Positions 24,839-29,754 of a stretch of DNA of 64,000 nt are shown here, in pieces; within the stretch, counting starts at the first letter, position 1; each line of letters begins with the position of its first letter. The stretch is from a bacterium (lineage in GTDB: Bacteria > UBA8248). The stretch spans positions 2,112,001 to 2,176,000 of the forward strand of contig OZ242260.1 in NCBI GenBank assembly GCA_965207065.1. The letters run 5' to 3'. The translations under genes were made by a program, and so were the position numbers. The notes beneath the pieces are model-generated. The model ran no database searches and had not been told where the DNA came from. It saw nothing but the letters and a program-made list of their open reading frames with translations.

Positions 24839-25720
24839 ATGACCACCATCACCCTCTCGGTTCTCTTCTCGCTCTCCACGGCGCTCGTGGTCGGCTCCTT
24901 CACCCTGTTCGTGAGAAGCGGGCAGCGGCACGCGAACGCGGTGTCGGGCGTTCTCATCGGGCTTATCGTATCCATGCCGCCGCTGCTCGTTGGCGCGGTC
25001 TGGATGTGGGAGCCCGCCCACTACCAACCTTTGGGCTGGCTCTTCTTCGCACTGGCCGGTATCGCGGGGCCCGCCGTGGGCAGGGTGTGTTTCTTTCATT
25101 CGATTCATCTGATGGGCGTGGCGCGCGCGGTGCCGCTCAATTCCACCATGCCGCTTTTCTCTGCGATAGCCGGCATATATGTCCTGGGCGAGAAACCGGG
25201 GCTGTATATTCTGGCGGGTACGGTGCTCATTGTCTTGGGGTGTATGGGGATCACCGCGAGAAGAGGGGAGTCCCAGCCCATTCGGGGAGAATACCTGCTC
25301 ATCGCGCTCGGGAGCGCGGTTTTCTTCTCCATCTCGCACATGTTGCGAAAACTCGGCGTGGGCGCGTCGCCCAACCCGTTTCTGGGCATATCGATCATGA
25401 GCATCGCGGGTGGGGTGTTCCTCTATATCTCCGGGCAGTATCTGCCGCGTGGATTGAGGCCTTCTCTGATGGTGAAAAAAGCGTGGGTGACCTACAGCAT
25501 CGGCGGCTTGCTGAACACCCTTTCTGTTCTCCTGCATCTTTACGGCCTTCACTACGGAGACCTCACCATCGTGATCCCTCTCGCCGCCACCGCACCCTTG
25601 TGGGCGCTGCTGCTCACGGCCATTTTCTTGCGCAAACTCGAGCGCATCACCTGGCCGATCCTTCTGGGCACGGTAGCGGTAGTCGTAGGAGGCGCGCTCG
25701 TGGCCGGCCGTGCGCTGTAA
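24839..25720 (+). CDS. DMT/EamA family transporter
   Basis: About 10 TM helices in two repeats; VLGEKP, FLRKLERIT; paralogous to 28307-29188. Confidence 0.88.
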   Translation: MTTITLSVLFSLSTALVVGSFTLFVRSGQRHANAVSGVLIGLIVSMPPLLVGAVWMWEPAHYQPLGWLFFALAGIAGPAVGRVCFFHSIHLMGVARAVPLNSTMPLFSAIAGIYVLGEKPGLYILAGTVLIVLGCMGITARRGESQPIRGEYLLIALGSAVFFSISHMLRKLGVGASPNPFLGISIMSIAGGVFLYISGQYLPRGLRPSLMVKKAWVTYSIGGLLNTLSVLLHLYGLHYGDLTIVIPLAATAPLWALLLTAIFLRKLERITWPILLGTVAVVVGGALVAGRAL

Positions 25721-25806
25721 CGAAGCAGGGTCCGCTTCTTTCTGTTATATTGGTAACGGTTCCAGATTATTCCGGAGCGTCGCCTAGCCAACTCTTGAGT
25801 GTCCAC

Positions 25807-26202
25807 ATGGGCGTTTCGCAAAAGTTTATATCGTTAGGTTTGGCATCCCTTTTTCTCCTTGTTCTGGCCGCATCCGGCAACCATCGGGTGCACCACCTGG
25901 AGCAGGAGGTTCAGACCCTCCTGGGGCATTCCGCGAATGCACATCACGCGCATGAAAATCACGAGGGGCATCATCACGGGGATCACCCAGATGATGCCGG
26001 ACAGGTACATAGCACCTGCGTACTGGCGACAGCGGGACAATGGGCGCAAGACAATAAGGCGGATGACCTGGTCCTTATCCATGCAGCGAATGAGGCGAAC
26101 CCACTGTTTCTTCAGGAAATTTTTCTTGTGCGCGATTCCTTGTTTTTCAACCTCTCTCCGCGCGCCCCGCCTATTCCTCTCCTCTCGTTCGCCAGTCTGT
26201 AA
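25807..26202 (+). CDS. His-rich exported leader protein with a C-terminal RAPP motif (DUF2946/CruR/CutF-like architecture)
   Basis: 131 aa from ATG 25807 (3' part of track ORF 25006..26202); hydrophobic N-terminus, 14 His, Cys71, R119-A-P-P122 at 26161-26172. Confidence 0.75.
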   Translation: MGVSQKFISLGLASLFLLVLAASGNHRVHHLEQEVQTLLGHSANAHHAHENHEGHHHGDHPDDAGQVHSTCVLATAGQWAQDNKADDLVLIHAANEANPLFLQEIFLVRDSLFFNLSPRAPPIPLLSFASL

Positions 26203-26261
26203 TTTTTCGCTACAGGAAAAGAATCTGCGCCCTGCGAGGCTCCTTTTGAGGGAGGGTGGAT

Positions 26262-26687
26262 ATGAAATCCATTTTCAAGGTTTTTTGTGCTTTCGCGCTG
26301 ATCTTTATTTTTCAGGCAATGCCCGCCCAGAGTGCGGGTAAAGATGGTACTCATCAAGGGGGGAAATCCCCGGTAAAAAGCAAGGAGATGAGCGGCATCA
26401 CGCTCCAGATCGCCGGTGGGAAGATCAAAGGCAACAAAAAAGTGGTTCGCGTGAAGCAAGGCGATGAAGTCAAGCTGAATCTGATGGCCGATAAAACAAC
26501 GGAAGTCCATCTCCACGGTTACGACATCGAAAAAACCGTCTCCCCGGGCCGGGTGAACGTGATGGCGTTTCGGGCCAGAGTGGCGGGCCGGTTTCCCGTA
26601 ACGGAACACGGATCTCACTCCCACGGGAAGAAAAAAAGCGGGGGCCATGGTGAGAAGGTGCTCTTCTACCTGGAGGTGCACCCATGA
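26262..26687 (+). CDS. Periplasmic cupredoxin-like, His-rich putative metal-binding protein
   Basis: Signal peptide; VRVKQGDEVKL, EVHLHGYD, GRFPVTEHGSHSHG, YLEVHP; GGAGGG RBS. Confidence 0.75.
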   Translation: MKSIFKVFCAFALIFIFQAMPAQSAGKDGTHQGGKSPVKSKEMSGITLQIAGGKIKGNKKVVRVKQGDEVKLNLMADKTTEVHLHGYDIEKTVSPGRVNVMAFRARVAGRFPVTEHGSHSHGKKKSGGHGEKVLFYLEVHP

Positions 26688-26700
26688 CGAGGATGATCCC

Positions 26701-28152
26701 ATGAGCTTTTTTATCCGGGGACTTTGGCTCGCAGCCGCTGTTGTTTTTCTCCCAACCATCGCGTCGGCGCATGGGTTCGGACAAAGGTATGACCTGCCCG
26801 TGCCGCTGGGTTTGTTCATGCTCGGGGCGGGTGCATCCGTGGTCCTTTCGTTTCTGGGCATGGGGCTTTTCGTGCGCAAAAAACATGATAGTGTGGACTA
26901 TCCGAGTTGTGACCTTCTCACCTCCCCCCTTTTCGCGTGGATGGGAAATCGAGTATTTCTCTCGGTCATAAGAGTGCTTTCAGTTGTTATGTTCTGCGTG
27001 ACACTGGTGGCGGGCTTCTGGGGGAGTGAAAACCCGGATAAGAATATCGTGCCGACCATGGTCTGGATCATCTGGTGGGTGGGACTGGCATATGTGTGCG
27101 CGCTGGCGGGGAATCTGTGGTCGCTGGTAAATCCATGGAGCGTCATATTTTCCTGGGCGGAGGCGCTGTACAAGAAAATCAAGCCCGGCGCTTCCCTATC
27201 GCCCGCGCAACCGTTCTCCGAACGCCCGGGCGTGTGGCCGGCTGTGGGTTTGTTCCTGTGGTTCGCTTGGGCTGAGATTGTCTGGCCGCACAACGACCTC
27301 CCCCGCAACCTCGCAGTCGCCACCCTTGGGTATTCCATCATCACATGGGCGGGTATGTACCTGTACGGTAAAGATGCGTGGCTCGAGCGCGGGGAGGCGT
27401 TTTCCATCTTATTCGGCGTGATGGGCCGATTCTCGATCACCGAGGCTCGCACGAGTGGAACCGGAAGAAGTGAATGGCGAATGAGGCCGCCGGCAGTGGG
27501 CCTTCTGAACACAGACGGCATGAGCAACTCCATGGTGGTGTTCGTGGTGTTGATGCTGGCGACGGTGAGTTTCGACGGTTTTACCGAAACGCCGCTTTGG
27601 CACCAAATTCGCGCAGGGTTATACGAGGTGGTCATCTGGATTGGGCGCGACGCTCTGCTGGTGGCGGATACCATCGCGCTCATCGCAGCTCCGGGGCTGT
27701 TCCTGGGCGTATATTACCTGTTCTGCATTCTGATGCGCGCCATGAGCGGGAGCACGCTCTCCACGGGGGAATTCGCGCGCCTGTTCGTGCTCTCGCTGGT
27801 TCCCATCGCGATTGGATACCACGTGGCGCATTATTTCTCCTTTCTCTTCATTCAGGGACAACGCATCATCCCGCTGTTGTCGGATCCCTTCGGAGTGGGC
27901 TGGAACCTGTGGGGAACCGCCTCTTATAAGATCGACATCGGGATCATCGGCGCGAAGGCGACCTGGTATGCTTCGATCGCCGCAATCGTCATCGGCCATA
28001 TATGCGCGGTTTACCTGGCGCATGTGACGGCGCTGCGCGCACTCGAGAACCGTTTCGCCGCCGTGCGCAGCCAATATCCGATGCTCGTTCTCATGGTGGG
28101 CTACACCATGGTGAGCTTGTGGATCATCGCACAACCTATTACAGGGGGCTGA
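26701..28152 (+). CDS. Conserved integral membrane protein (often labelled fenitrothion hydrolase-like), putative metal transport
   Basis: Signal peptide ending ASA-HGFGQRYDLPVPL; about 11 TM helices; SFDGF, PIAIGYHVAHYF, SDPFG.GWNL.GT, IGHICAVYLAH, SQYPM. Confidence 0.8.
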   Translation: MSFFIRGLWLAAAVVFLPTIASAHGFGQRYDLPVPLGLFMLGAGASVVLSFLGMGLFVRKKHDSVDYPSCDLLTSPLFAWMGNRVFLSVIRVLSVVMFCVTLVAGFWGSENPDKNIVPTMVWIIWWVGLAYVCALAGNLWSLVNPWSVIFSWAEALYKKIKPGASLSPAQPFSERPGVWPAVGLFLWFAWAEIVWPHNDLPRNLAVATLGYSIITWAGMYLYGKDAWLERGEAFSILFGVMGRFSITEARTSGTGRSEWRMRPPAVGLLNTDGMSNSMVVFVVLMLATVSFDGFTETPLWHQIRAGLYEVVIWIGRDALLVADTIALIAAPGLFLGVYYLFCILMRAMSGSTLSTGEFARLFVLSLVPIAIGYHVAHYFSFLFIQGQRIIPLLSDPFGVGWNLWGTASYKIDIGIIGAKATWYASIAAIVIGHICAVYLAHVTALRALENRFAAVRSQYPMLVLMVGYTMVSLWIIAQPITGG

Positions 28153-28306
28153 CGACCTGCGGGCGAACTGGCAGTAAATTTCAGAGCTCTTGCGCTGCAG
28201 TCACTCGCCTCAACATGGCTTTGTCCCCGCTCCTCTGATATGACATCACCCTTGCGCCATTTTTTATTCATAAATTCTTTCCTTTTTTTAGGCCGGGGGA
28301 TGCTCC

Positions 28307-29188
28307 ATGAACGATGCGCTGCTGGCGGCGGGGTTCGCCCTGGGTACCGCATCGATGTCCTCGGCCTTCAGCCTCATCGCCAGACGCGGGCAGCAGCATG
28401 GCACAGCCATAACGGGTGTCGTAATCGGCCTGATTGTGAATGTCCCCTGGCTGGTGGCGCTGACCATCCTCACCTGGGAGCCCGCCTATTGGAGTTCGGA
28501 GGCCTGGTTCTGGTTCTTCTTGTCGGGCATCACGGGGCCCTCGCTCGGCCGCGTGTTCATGTTCCGGGCGATACATCGACTGGGCGTCTCACGTGCGGTT
28601 CCCCTCCTGGCGGCCAATCCGCTTTTTTCAGCCGGTTTCGCCTATATCTTTCTGGGTGAGCGGCCGGGGCCTTACGTGTGGGCGGGAATTTTCCTGGTTG
28701 TTTTAGGCTGTGTGGGAATTACCTATCAGCGCAAAAGCGACGCTCCCTGGGACAGGCGCGCCATCTGGCTGCCGCTATTGTCCGTTTTGGGGTTTTCCAC
28801 GTCGAACATTTTCAGAAAAATCGGGATCGAGGTTGTTCCTTCCGCACTGCTCGGCATCACGCTCACCAGTTTTTTCGGTTTGGTGGCGCTGGTCGCGGTT
28901 TTGTGGTTTCTGCCCAAACCCCAGCGTCCCTCTCTGAAATGGGGAAAAGCCTGGCATTTCTATGGACCCTGCGGACTCATTAACACGCTGGCGTTTTTGA
29001 GTCATTTCGCTGCTTTGAAGTATGGGGATATTTCGGTCGTGTCACCGCTTTCTTCCACGGCGCCGCTTTTCGCGCTCTTTTACTCCTGGATATTTCTGCG
29101 CGATATGGAGCGTATCACGCTTCCCATATTGCTGGGGACGGTCTGCGTCGTCGCGGGAGGAGTGATCATCGCCTTGAAAGCGATGTAG
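28307..29188 (+). CDS. DMT/EamA family transporter
   Basis: About 10 TM helices; FLGERP, FLRDMERIT; paralogue of 24839-25720. Confidence 0.88.
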   Translation: MNDALLAAGFALGTASMSSAFSLIARRGQQHGTAITGVVIGLIVNVPWLVALTILTWEPAYWSSEAWFWFFLSGITGPSLGRVFMFRAIHRLGVSRAVPLLAANPLFSAGFAYIFLGERPGPYVWAGIFLVVLGCVGITYQRKSDAPWDRRAIWLPLLSVLGFSTSNIFRKIGIEVVPSALLGITLTSFFGLVALVAVLWFLPKPQRPSLKWGKAWHFYGPCGLINTLAFLSHFAALKYGDISVVSPLSSTAPLFALFYSWIFLRDMERITLPILLGTVCVVAGGVIIALKAM

Positions 29189-29208: not shown

Positions 29209-29754
29209 TCAACCCGTAAGAAGCGTCCTGATCGTGGGAGCTATCTCCTTCGCGCGCCCGCGGAGTTGTTCATCCGTGAGGCTGCCCACCGGATGGGGGA
29301 TATAGGCCACCGGATAGTCCGGCATGCCGCGCACCTTGGAGACCATCTCGACTGTGGGACGAAAGGGCTCGGTGCAGATGACGGCCGTGGGAACGCCTTT
29401 TTTCTCCAGCTCGATTCCATCGTGCACACTGCACGAAGAGCAGGAGCCTCAGTCACCTACTGCAGTGATGGCGAGGTCGCATTTCTCGGCCATCTCCGCG
29501 TACACCTCGGGCTTCGCAGGTCTGGTATCGTATTCTTTCGATAACTCAACAGCGATGTCGGGATCCGCGCCGTCCGCCCGCAATTCATCCAGAATGTAGC
29601 GCATGAGCTTGTCCGCGCCCACTTTAGAGTTCCAGAGCAGGCCGATGCGTTTGCCGGAGAGTGCGCCGTCGCGGCTTGTGCGGTCTTCGGTTTCGATTTC
29701 CGGTTCCACTGTCGGATCGTAAATCGGTATCGCAGTATCTATCACGGGGTTCAT
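29209..29754 (-). CDS. UGSC-family selenoprotein (UGA at 29449-29451 read as Sec), 181 aa
   Basis: Track ORFs 29449..29754 and 29209..29427 are in frame; readthrough gives AITAVGD-U-GSCSSCSVHDGIELEKKGVP. Confidence 0.88.
29420..29436 (-). promoter_or_regulatory. Putative bacterial SECIS hairpin
   Basis: Minus-strand TCGTGCA-GTG-TGCACGA, 7-bp stem starting 12 nt after the UGA, with G at the start of the loop. Confidence 0.65.

Follow-up and report, generated by a model that had tools for sequence, protein, structure and literature searches.

What does a small, histidine-rich reading frame do that ends shortly behind the tetrapeptide RAPP and directly precedes the genes of a putative periplasmic metal protein and a membrane protein? 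This question is raised by a bacterial locus in contig OZ242260.1 (assembly GCA_965207065.1), within a stretch of 64,000 nucleotides (nt; positions 2,112,001 to 2,176,000) that is called the window here and whose own numbering is used throughout. The locus consists of three genes on the + strand, namely a leader gene of 131 amino acids (aa; 25807-26202, ATG at 25807 and TAA at 26200-26202), the gene of a 141-aa cupredoxin-fold protein (26262-26687, ATG at 26262), and the gene of a 483-aa polytopic membrane protein (26701-28152, ATG at 26701). We consider it probable, though by no means certain, that the leader is a regulatory element of the kind represented by CruR and CutF, in a variant with a single Cys and several His ligands, and that it would serve as a nascent-chain metal sensor of a probable metal-handling module.

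Anatomy and conservation of the leader

The leader frame is nested in a longer frame of 398 aa that overlaps the upstream EamA gene. Its N-terminus contains, behind K6, a 16-residue hydrophobic segment (residues 8-23, ISLGLASLFLLVLAAS; 25828-25875, +, read from the translation), which is conserved in relatives and is predicted by eye to be an export signal. Adjoining this segment is a His triad, H26-R-V-H29-H30 (HRVHH; 25882-25896, +), and a variable tract rich in His, Asp, and Glu is found at residues 41-68 (25927-26010, +). There are 13 His from H26 to H68, and the stretch of 45 residues that starts with HRVHH and runs up to Cys71 contains all of them (Cys71 at 26017-26019, +), which is the sole Cys of the leader, lies in the context HSTCVLA, and marks the start of a fixed distance that is described below. 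The 47 residues that separate C71 from R119 are poorly distinctive and lead to the codons CGC GCC CCG CCT of the RAPP motif (residues 119-122; 26161-26172, +), the predicted arrest site, behind which nine more residues precede the stop. The initial annotation had described a nested 131-aa frame with a signal-like N-terminus, 13 His, C71, and RAPP at residues 119-122, and all of these elements lie where it had placed them.

The RAPP motif alone is no proof of a function because RAPP or RGPP tails are frequent in this genome: 108 of the 48,638 six-frame open reading frames (ORFs) of at least 50 aa carry one of the two in their last 15 residues, and RAPP at the end of an ORF is common in junk frames. 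Among these 108 ORFs, the leader has the strongest hydrophobic segment (Kyte-Doolittle window value of 2.58). What lifts the leader above chance is its conservation in relatives. Close homologues are rare (three among 5.8 billion proteins), and four cluster representatives were obtained at E ≤ 1e-3 among 1.84 billion proteins. A pattern taken from an alignment of eight leaders (A4), PH[RQ][VAT]H, was used to scan metagenome contigs and gave 33 loci. In total, 40 leaders (36 unique) were compared: the one of the window, six database proteins, three from genome loci, and 30 from metagenome loci. L008, a duplicate of record L112, and three leaders truncated at contig ends were left out. We refer to these related leaders as the clade and to its members from soil metagenomes as sister leaders.

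The 40 leaders span 29-98% identity and keep HRVHH, one Cys, and RAPP. RAPP lies 2-10 residues before the stop in 39 of them, so the conservation of the motif in orthologous leaders, on which the initial annotation depended, was confirmed; the exception (L115) has no RAPP, and its divergence is confined to its last eight residues. In all 39 RAPP-bearing leaders the Cys stands exactly 47 intervening residues ahead of the RAPP Arg, a distance that contrasts with the segment from HRVHH to Cys, which is 27-122 residues long and contains 6-27 His. In the eight-leader alignment (29-96% identity), the invariant positions are H26, H29, and H30 (the triad is found in 8/8), P61, C71, A76, and RAPP, while H68 and A74 are not conserved as ligands in the leader relatives. 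The region from Cys to RAPP is poorly conserved. Substitutions at codon positions 1/2/3 number 13/10/20 against the leader of locus L003 and 31/30/36 against that of L006, a weak third-position excess that indicates weak coding constraint outside the motifs. These sequences suggest that most of the leader evolves fast and that only the motifs and their spacing are held. Given the weak third-position excess and the fixed motifs and spacing, selection acts on a few residues and one length, a pattern to be expected for a nascent peptide with a regulatory role but not for a protein that folds.

It could be argued that the ORF is merely a non-functional chance frame between the EamA and cupredoxin genes. 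The frequency of RAPP/RGPP tails and the weak third-position bias would agree with that, as would the fact that the segment is wholly missing in some close relatives. On the other hand, sequences of 29-37% identity from unrelated contexts repeat this architecture with HRVHH, the Cys, its exact spacing, and RAPP invariant, the match to the DUF2946 family described below spans the whole profile, and the frame is open and full-length, with zero internal stops, in every genome of the phylum that contains the segment (13/13 matches). A chance frame is thus very improbable.

Relation to DUF2946, CruR, and CutF

Proteins of the DUF2946 family combine a CxxC motif with RAPP at a spacing of 45 residues, give or take one or two, and an insertion of five residues into the Cys-RAPP spacing breaks copper control, as described by Roy et al. 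(PMC9426467). For the prototype of the family, CruR of Bordetella pertussis (Bp2923), copper-dependent relief of arrest and Rho-dependent termination have been shown according to the same source. In vitro, the ribosome halts on CruR while the P and A sites are occupied by the two Pro codons (PMC12992588), and arrest at RAPP has been reported in vitro for ApdA and ApdP as well (PMC12992588; PMC10951233). In Rhodobacter, copper-induced stalling on CutF unmasks the Shine-Dalgarno (SD) sequence of cutO (PMC9973294; bioRxiv 10.1101/2025.02.05.636593); the CutF protein is described as undetectable in vivo and as acting in cis only (PMC9973294). In the latter study, CutF-like proteins are divided into 29 sequence clusters with Cys, His, or mixed ligand motifs, and two His-only clusters upstream of HupE/UreJ are proposed to sense Ni or Co. 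Moreover, small RAPP/RGPP proteins with localization signals are reported upstream of TonB receptor, YcnI, PCuAC, and PepSY genes (PMC12992588).

The only Pfam family matched by the leader is DUF2946 (PF11162; E 2.5e-4, 22.2 bits). The alignment runs nearly end to end, leader residues 14-122 being matched to positions 7-117 of the 117 in the profile, and five of eight clade members match the family at E ≤ 0.1 (best E 1.4e-5). The kinship to CruR and CutF leaders suspected in the initial annotation was borne out in this respect. In four canonical DUF2946 proteins, which were taken from two proteobacterial genomes, the second Cys of CxxC is separated from RAPP by 45-47 residues and the first by 48-50. 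Since these spacings agree with that of the clade, its single Cys sits at the position of the second Cys. The initial annotation had read CVLA as a degenerate CxxC starting at C71, which is probably off by one motif position. Its statement that a His tract replaces CxxC is too simple: CxxC is absent, but the conserved elements are HRVHH and one Cys, whereas the long His tract is variable in both length and content.

Like CruR, the leader is predicted to be a small exported peptide, is the first gene of its operon, has RAPP a few residues from the stop, and keeps a metal ligand fixed 45-47 residues upstream of RAPP. Also as in CruR operons, sister leaders of the clade precede genes of TonB-dependent receptors, and AhpC/TSA genes occur. 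Unlike CruR, the leader has one Cys instead of CxxC as well as the invariant HRVHH and the long variable His tract, 59 nt separate it from the next gene (162 nt for CruR), and the products encoded downstream are a protein with a cupredoxin fold and a membrane protein whose family is uncharacterized. The arrest geometry, in which Pro121 would occupy the P site and Pro122 the A site, is predicted by analogy with the CruR toeprint (PMC12992588).

The leader furthermore agrees with the rules given for CutF-like proteins in PMC9973294: it is shorter than 150 aa, has a PP pair among its last 15 residues (P121-P122, 10-11 residues from the C-terminus), has an export signal as judged by eye, and is followed on the same strand by a gene less than 1000 nt away. 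Like most CutF-like genes it has a short spacer behind it, and like in cutFOG of Rhodobacter capsulatus, the downstream product has a cupredoxin fold, CutO being a multicopper oxidase of cupredoxin domains. The differences from CutF are that no SD-masking stem-loop could be demonstrated at the leader, that the ligand set is another one, and that the protein encoded downstream is a single Cys-free cupredoxin domain and not an oxidase. With the His-only CutF-like clusters 14 and 17 (HupE/UreJ), the leader shares a His-rich sensing region and a proposed metal other than copper. Unlike those clusters, the clade keeps one invariant Cys, and its targets are not HupE/UreJ (no Pfam match at E ≤ 1).

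The kind of element, including His-rich versions, is therefore already known. The His-only and mixed Cys/His clusters and the idea of other metals, which the initial annotation also proposed, were published in PMC9973294, and the clade may coincide with one of the 29 clusters of that study. It is new as a single-Cys/His variant before a new target.

Genes behind the sister leaders and the metal question

Sixteen proteins encoded downstream of the sister leaders were scanned, of which five are TonB-dependent receptors, seven are BNR-propeller lipoproteins, and one is porin-like; the other three are fragments without a family match. Near the 13 longer sister loci, genes of ZnuA (2), ABC-3 permeases (4), ATP-binding cassette (ABC) ATPases (3), TonB (4), and ExbD (1) were found, and an AhpC/TSA gene stands right behind the propeller gene in six of these loci. 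The genes around the sister leaders form a setting of zinc-type uptake. Two soil-metagenome contigs (L096:22-2651 and L111:300-3310) each contain an island with two clade leaders, adjoining ZnuA/ABC-3/TonB/ExbD genes, in which a short leader precedes the BNR-propeller and AhpC/TSA genes and the leader before the TonB-dependent receptor gene is long (147-205 aa, with as many as 27 His).

These neighbors also bear on the proposal that the leader, as a RAPP arrest peptide, monitors the capacity for export or membrane insertion, like SecM, ApdA, or ApdP, and senses no metal, the His residues being incidental or serving another purpose. An N-terminal export signal combined with a C-terminal RAPP is the architecture of Sec monitors (PMC10987492, PMC7897499, PMC12992588), and both downstream products of the locus are exported or membrane proteins. 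However, whereas arrest peptides of the ApdA, ApdP, ApcA, and SecM type stand before genes of the Sec or YidC pathway, the leader precedes a cupredoxin-like and a membrane gene, and no sec or yidC gene follows it or any sister leader examined. In addition, the residues that do not vary in it, three His and one Cys, are typical metal ligands and stand at fixed positions, and the neighbors of the sister leaders are metal importers. We thus hold a pure secretion monitor to be decidedly unlikely.

For the nature of the metal, the pointers are split: the contexts of the sister leaders speak for Zn, while the cupredoxin fold, the N-terminal His of the membrane protein, and the published family speak for Cu. 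Zn or Cu would be the most likely metal, and Ni or Co are possible.

The cupredoxin-fold protein and the membrane protein

The 141-aa protein is secreted and matches Pfam Cupredoxin_1 (E 2e-3). Its structural model has a mean predicted local distance difference test score (pLDDT) of 81 overall and of 94-98 over residues 45-120 and 131-141. A Foldseek search gave 101 matches in the PDB at E ≤ 1e-3, the top ones all being cupredoxin domains, and the best were a CuA domain (E 9.4e-6), FtrB of Brucella (8vuk, E 2.7e-5), nitrosocyanin, and EfeO. On the strength of this model, a Greek-key cupredoxin fold can be predicted with confidence. In 56 homologues D77, H83, H85, G86, Y87, G109, H116, and a C-terminal E-V-x-P are conserved; the protein thus contains an HLHGYD motif (H83-x-H85-G-Y-D), a His-rich loop, and the C-terminus LEVxP. 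The Cys (and Met) ligands of blue-copper and CuA sites were not found, the protein being Cys-free outside its signal peptide, and the candidate ligands are H83, H85, and H116. As with FtrB of FtrABCD and the cupredoxin domain of EfeO in EfeUOB, a small periplasmic cupredoxin is encoded beside a membrane protein, which in those two systems is a metal permease (FtrB 8vuk, TM-score of 0.74 on the target; EfeO 7wgu, E 3.1e-4). In contrast to these systems, identity is only 12-17%, the partner membrane protein is not FTR1/EfeU (no Pfam match), and genes of P19/FtrA, the polyferredoxin, and EfeB are absent nearby.

The family of the 483-aa membrane protein is very large (5,581 matches among 8,000 candidates scored), and no Pfam and no NCBIfam model was found for the protein at E ≤ 1, including CopD, HupE/UreJ, FTR1/EfeU, ZIP, and NiCoT. 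Its model has a pLDDT of 81 and a predicted TM-score of 0.80 and is of low confidence at residues 14-64 only. The signal-like N-terminus is followed by ASA|HGFG, and A23-H24 are invariant in 28 homologues, which upholds the mature N-terminal His that was predicted in the initial annotation. HupE starts with His after its signal sequence, as the membrane protein here appears to. Four further His (H374, H377, H433, and H441) are invariant in the same 28 homologues and lie within long predicted helices. A fold could not be assigned: a profile search against the PDB gave chance eL40 matches only, the best Foldseek match in the PDB had E 0.058 and a TM-score of 0.12, and the wide VIA search reached a best Z of 8.7 with generic helical bundles for residues 312-483 only (domains were not searched separately). 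An in-frame TGA flagged in the membrane gene of genus g2 was dismissed, as the aligned gene is free of internal stops.

In some sources the family is labeled fenitrothion hydrolase, and the nearest clusters of a homologue bear automatic names only (fenitrothion hydrolase family and DMT permease). Nothing in the sequence or the model suggests a hydrolase. The pair rather looks like a periplasmic cupredoxin and a His-lined membrane protein, as the initial annotation had supposed in doubting the label.

Distribution of the pair and of the leader

Eighty genome loci with the membrane protein were retrieved, 11 of them with less than 700 nt of upstream sequence. The cupredoxin and membrane genes are both kept in 63 loci, with the cupredoxin gene just upstream on the same strand in 61. 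A leader-type ORF stands before the pair in five of the 80 loci, in four of which (L003, L005, L006, and L008) it is a clade leader. Of 51 genomes of the phylum, 33 contain the membrane gene and 13 the leader. Ten of the leader-bearing genomes have it immediately ahead of the cupredoxin-membrane pair and in the same orientation, so 10 of the 33 genomes with the membrane gene carry the leader with it. The notion that homologues of the downstream genes are generally preceded by a RAPP/RGPP ORF, as contemplated in the initial annotation, must be given up, given the 5/80 loci (11 unjudgeable) and the 10/33 phylum genomes. Elsewhere in the phylum, two leaders precede a small secreted BiPBP_C-like protein, and a partial leader-like match was found before a c-type cytochrome gene (G044). 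Within the genus, without the genome of the window, the membrane gene occurs in 18 and the leader in seven of 22 genomes; 11 of the 18 show no leader, and three of these 11 are single-contig genomes. In two relatives (L004 and L007), EF-G, EamA, cupredoxin, and membrane genes follow one another in the same order, and what is missing is precisely the leader together with most of the spacer. As relatives keep the pair without the leader, the latter behaves as a self-contained, dispensable cassette, which is expected of a regulator.

This pattern is also relevant for the idea that the leader is a true small secreted or membrane-anchored, His-rich metallochaperone or metal buffer that works in trans, with RAPP as a pause aiding export or as an incidental feature. 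Its 13 His and one Cys in 45 residues could bind several metal ions, it shares one operon with two further putative metal proteins, the sister genes sit in metal-uptake islands, and the relatives often have Pro at +1 of the likely cleavage site (by eye), so they may stay anchored. A structural protein, however, has no need of an invariant Cys-RAPP distance of 47 residues beside a tract that varies four-fold in length, and the region between Cys and RAPP is poorly conserved. The type of downstream gene changes among the sister leaders, and close relatives drop the leader gene yet keep the pair. CutF, moreover, is described as undetected as a protein in vivo and as only cis-acting (PMC9973294). 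A metallochaperone or buffer is accordingly rated as unlikely, and the CruR/CutF-type regulatory leader remains our preferred reading.

A second type of ORF before the pair was observed in Trueperaceae (L034, 2691-3008, +). This ORF of 105 aa is unrelated to the clade, and the genes that follow it directly are those of a cupredoxin with an N-terminal extension and of the membrane protein. Its N-terminus is signal-like, it contains a His cluster from H41 to H52 (HQHGDHEPEHVH) and no Cys, IRGPPDR forms its C-terminus, and the last His stands 47 residues ahead of the RGPP Arg. It has only two homologues, both near-identical, from which conservation cannot be judged.

It is conceivable, although we regard it as rather doubtful, that the pair is an undescribed and very widespread inner-membrane system of metal uptake or insertion that has come under nascent-chain control at least twice independently, in Nitrospinota and in Trueperaceae. 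Such a system would consist of the Cys-free cupredoxin and the membrane protein of about 10 helices with its N-terminal His and four intramembrane His; its two leaders would be the HRVHH/single-Cys RAPP type of Nitrospinota and the unrelated His-only RGPP type of Trueperaceae, the nearest ligand lying 47 residues upstream in both.

When 144 ORFs flanking the pair at the 80 loci were scanned against Pfam, the other neighbors proved heterogeneous. Nine loci encode a protein of about 395 aa that weakly matches beta-propeller, SBP56, and cytochrome-d1 families (L010:2163-3344, −, and eight further ORFs of this cluster in L021, L023, L028, L035, L042, L051, L066, and L067, most of them divergent upstream neighbors). 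In six to eight alphaproteobacterial loci, an ABC ATPase gene and the gene of a 393-aa protein without a Pfam match stand directly before the pair on the same strand (Xanthobacteraceae/Bradyrhizobium type; L018:1327-3218, L070, L072, and L078, +), and these may represent a four-gene version of the system.

Proposed mechanism and its weighing

According to the mechanism we propose, the leader would be a nascent peptide that is exported cotranslationally, and the ligands exposed to the periplasm (H26/H29/H30, the His tract, and Cys71) would meet the metal while the ribosome pauses at RAPP. At arrest, about 30-35 residues of a nascent chain fill the ribosomal tunnel, and the next 15-20 span the translocon. 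The fixed distance of 47 residues between Cys71 and RAPP would therefore bring the Cys approximately to the periplasmic mouth of the Sec channel at arrest and leave the His ligands outside. Binding of metal would alter the pull on the nascent chain and thereby the duration of arrest, and the state of arrest would set how strongly the cupredoxin and membrane genes, which share the transcription unit of the leader, are expressed. Their products would most likely take up metal or hand it over at the inner membrane. The favored logic resembles that of CruR, in which arrest would persist when metal is scarce and the pair would then be expressed, because the sister leaders head uptake-type genes.

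The output might be transmitted by unmasking of the SD sequence (CutF-like) or by protection from Rho (CruR-like). The 43 nt behind RAPP (26173-26215) are C/U-rich and G-poor (14 C vs 6 G); by analogy with CruR, such a stretch would suit a Rho loading site that is exposed as the ribosome leaves. The last nine leader codons, the stop, and the 59-nt spacer with the next SD sequence (26173-26261, +) are highly conserved in four close relatives, the only close sequences that share the spacer. The cupredoxin gene has a strong SD sequence (GAGGGAGGGTGG, 26248-26259), and a pattern scan showed a hairpin over this sequence and the ATG (26252-26276). An Rfam search of 25000-29000 gave nothing relevant. 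Contigs from RNA libraries (two studies, 90-100% identical relatives) cover parts of the cupredoxin and membrane genes, one of them spanning 26190-26421; they may include DNA, are silent on strand, ends, and level, and show presence in RNA libraries only. None covers the body of the leader, which carries no evidential weight.

Several findings weigh against the proposed assignment and mechanism. In addition to the frequency of RAPP at the ends of junk frames, the weak third-position excess, and the split pointers to the metal described above, the DUF2946 score of 22.2 bits is below the curated gathering cut-off of 23.7 bits, and CxxC, the hallmark of that family, is absent from the leader. An hhalign comparison with the four canonical DUF2946 proteins aligned only 13 columns around RAPP (probability 21%), and since this profile-profile alignment covers the RAPP end only, the clade has to be regarded as a peripheral relative of the family. 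Most homologues of the pair have no leader. At the RNA level, the folds of 26140-26290 and 26186-26290 are no better than those of shuffled sequences (z +0.37 and +0.54). Pairing of the C/U-rich codons behind RAPP with the SD sequence was rejected as the switch, as its −16.4 kcal/mol is equaled by 42% of shuffles; such pairing is not above shuffles in the window, L003, L005, or L006. The hairpin at 26252-26276 appears largely retained in the leaderless locus L004 (alignment by eye, not folded or scanned). What the sequences establish is the anatomy of the leader, the conservation of its motifs and of the ruler, the kinship with DUF2946-type leaders, the operon order, the folds, and the exchange of downstream genes between sister leaders; arrest at RAPP, sensing of metal and the kind of metal, the direction of control, and the type of output are inferred.

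Locus boundaries and other observations in the genome

The leader operon is flanked by two genes of EamA-family transporters (24839-25720 upstream and 28307-29188 downstream). Right behind the stop of the upstream EamA gene lies a terminator-like hairpin with a T-run (25722-25738, +; pattern scan, a consensus match only), which is present in relatives with and without the leader and probably separates EamA from the leader operon. The leader heads the operon, in agreement with the initial annotation, with 59 nt between the leader and the cupredoxin gene and 13 nt between the latter and the membrane gene. The genome has a guanine-cytosine content of 59.5%, and judging from how its closest relatives are named, the bacterium belongs to the Nitrospinota (Nitrospinae).

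Two further observations were made. At 29212-29754 (−) of the window, two ORFs form one frame with a single in-frame TGA that belongs to the UGSC family (Pfam PF24696); read through, the TGA gives G-D-U-G-S-C at residue 102, and the product is likely a selenocysteine protein. Outside the window, a near-identical frame of 298-358 aa that ends in GHRAPPLV occurs in at least five places of the genome (G000:C1:36030-37103, 90264-91157, 902731-903804, 1151006-1152079, and 2323549-2324622) and probably belongs to a repeated mobile element.

Significance

CruR and CutF are recently found cases in which the periplasm is read from the ribosome, so far tested for copper and CxxC-type ligands only. If the broader interpretation of the pair and its two leaders is true, the combined length of tunnel and translocon would be a general physical ruler for the sensing of metals across the membrane by stalled ribosomes, and since either Cys or His could act as the ligand, this ruler would suit metals other than copper as well. 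The clade offers a naturally occurring version with one Cys, several His, and a ruler of exactly 47 residues, natural relatives with and without the leader, and sister copies inside zinc-type uptake islands. It would therefore let the extension of the mechanism to other metals be asked directly. Furthermore, the leader is a first functional handle on a pair of proteins with thousands of homologues and a probable role in metal handling, for which there is no Pfam model and no solved relative and for which the label fenitrothion hydrolase is misleading.

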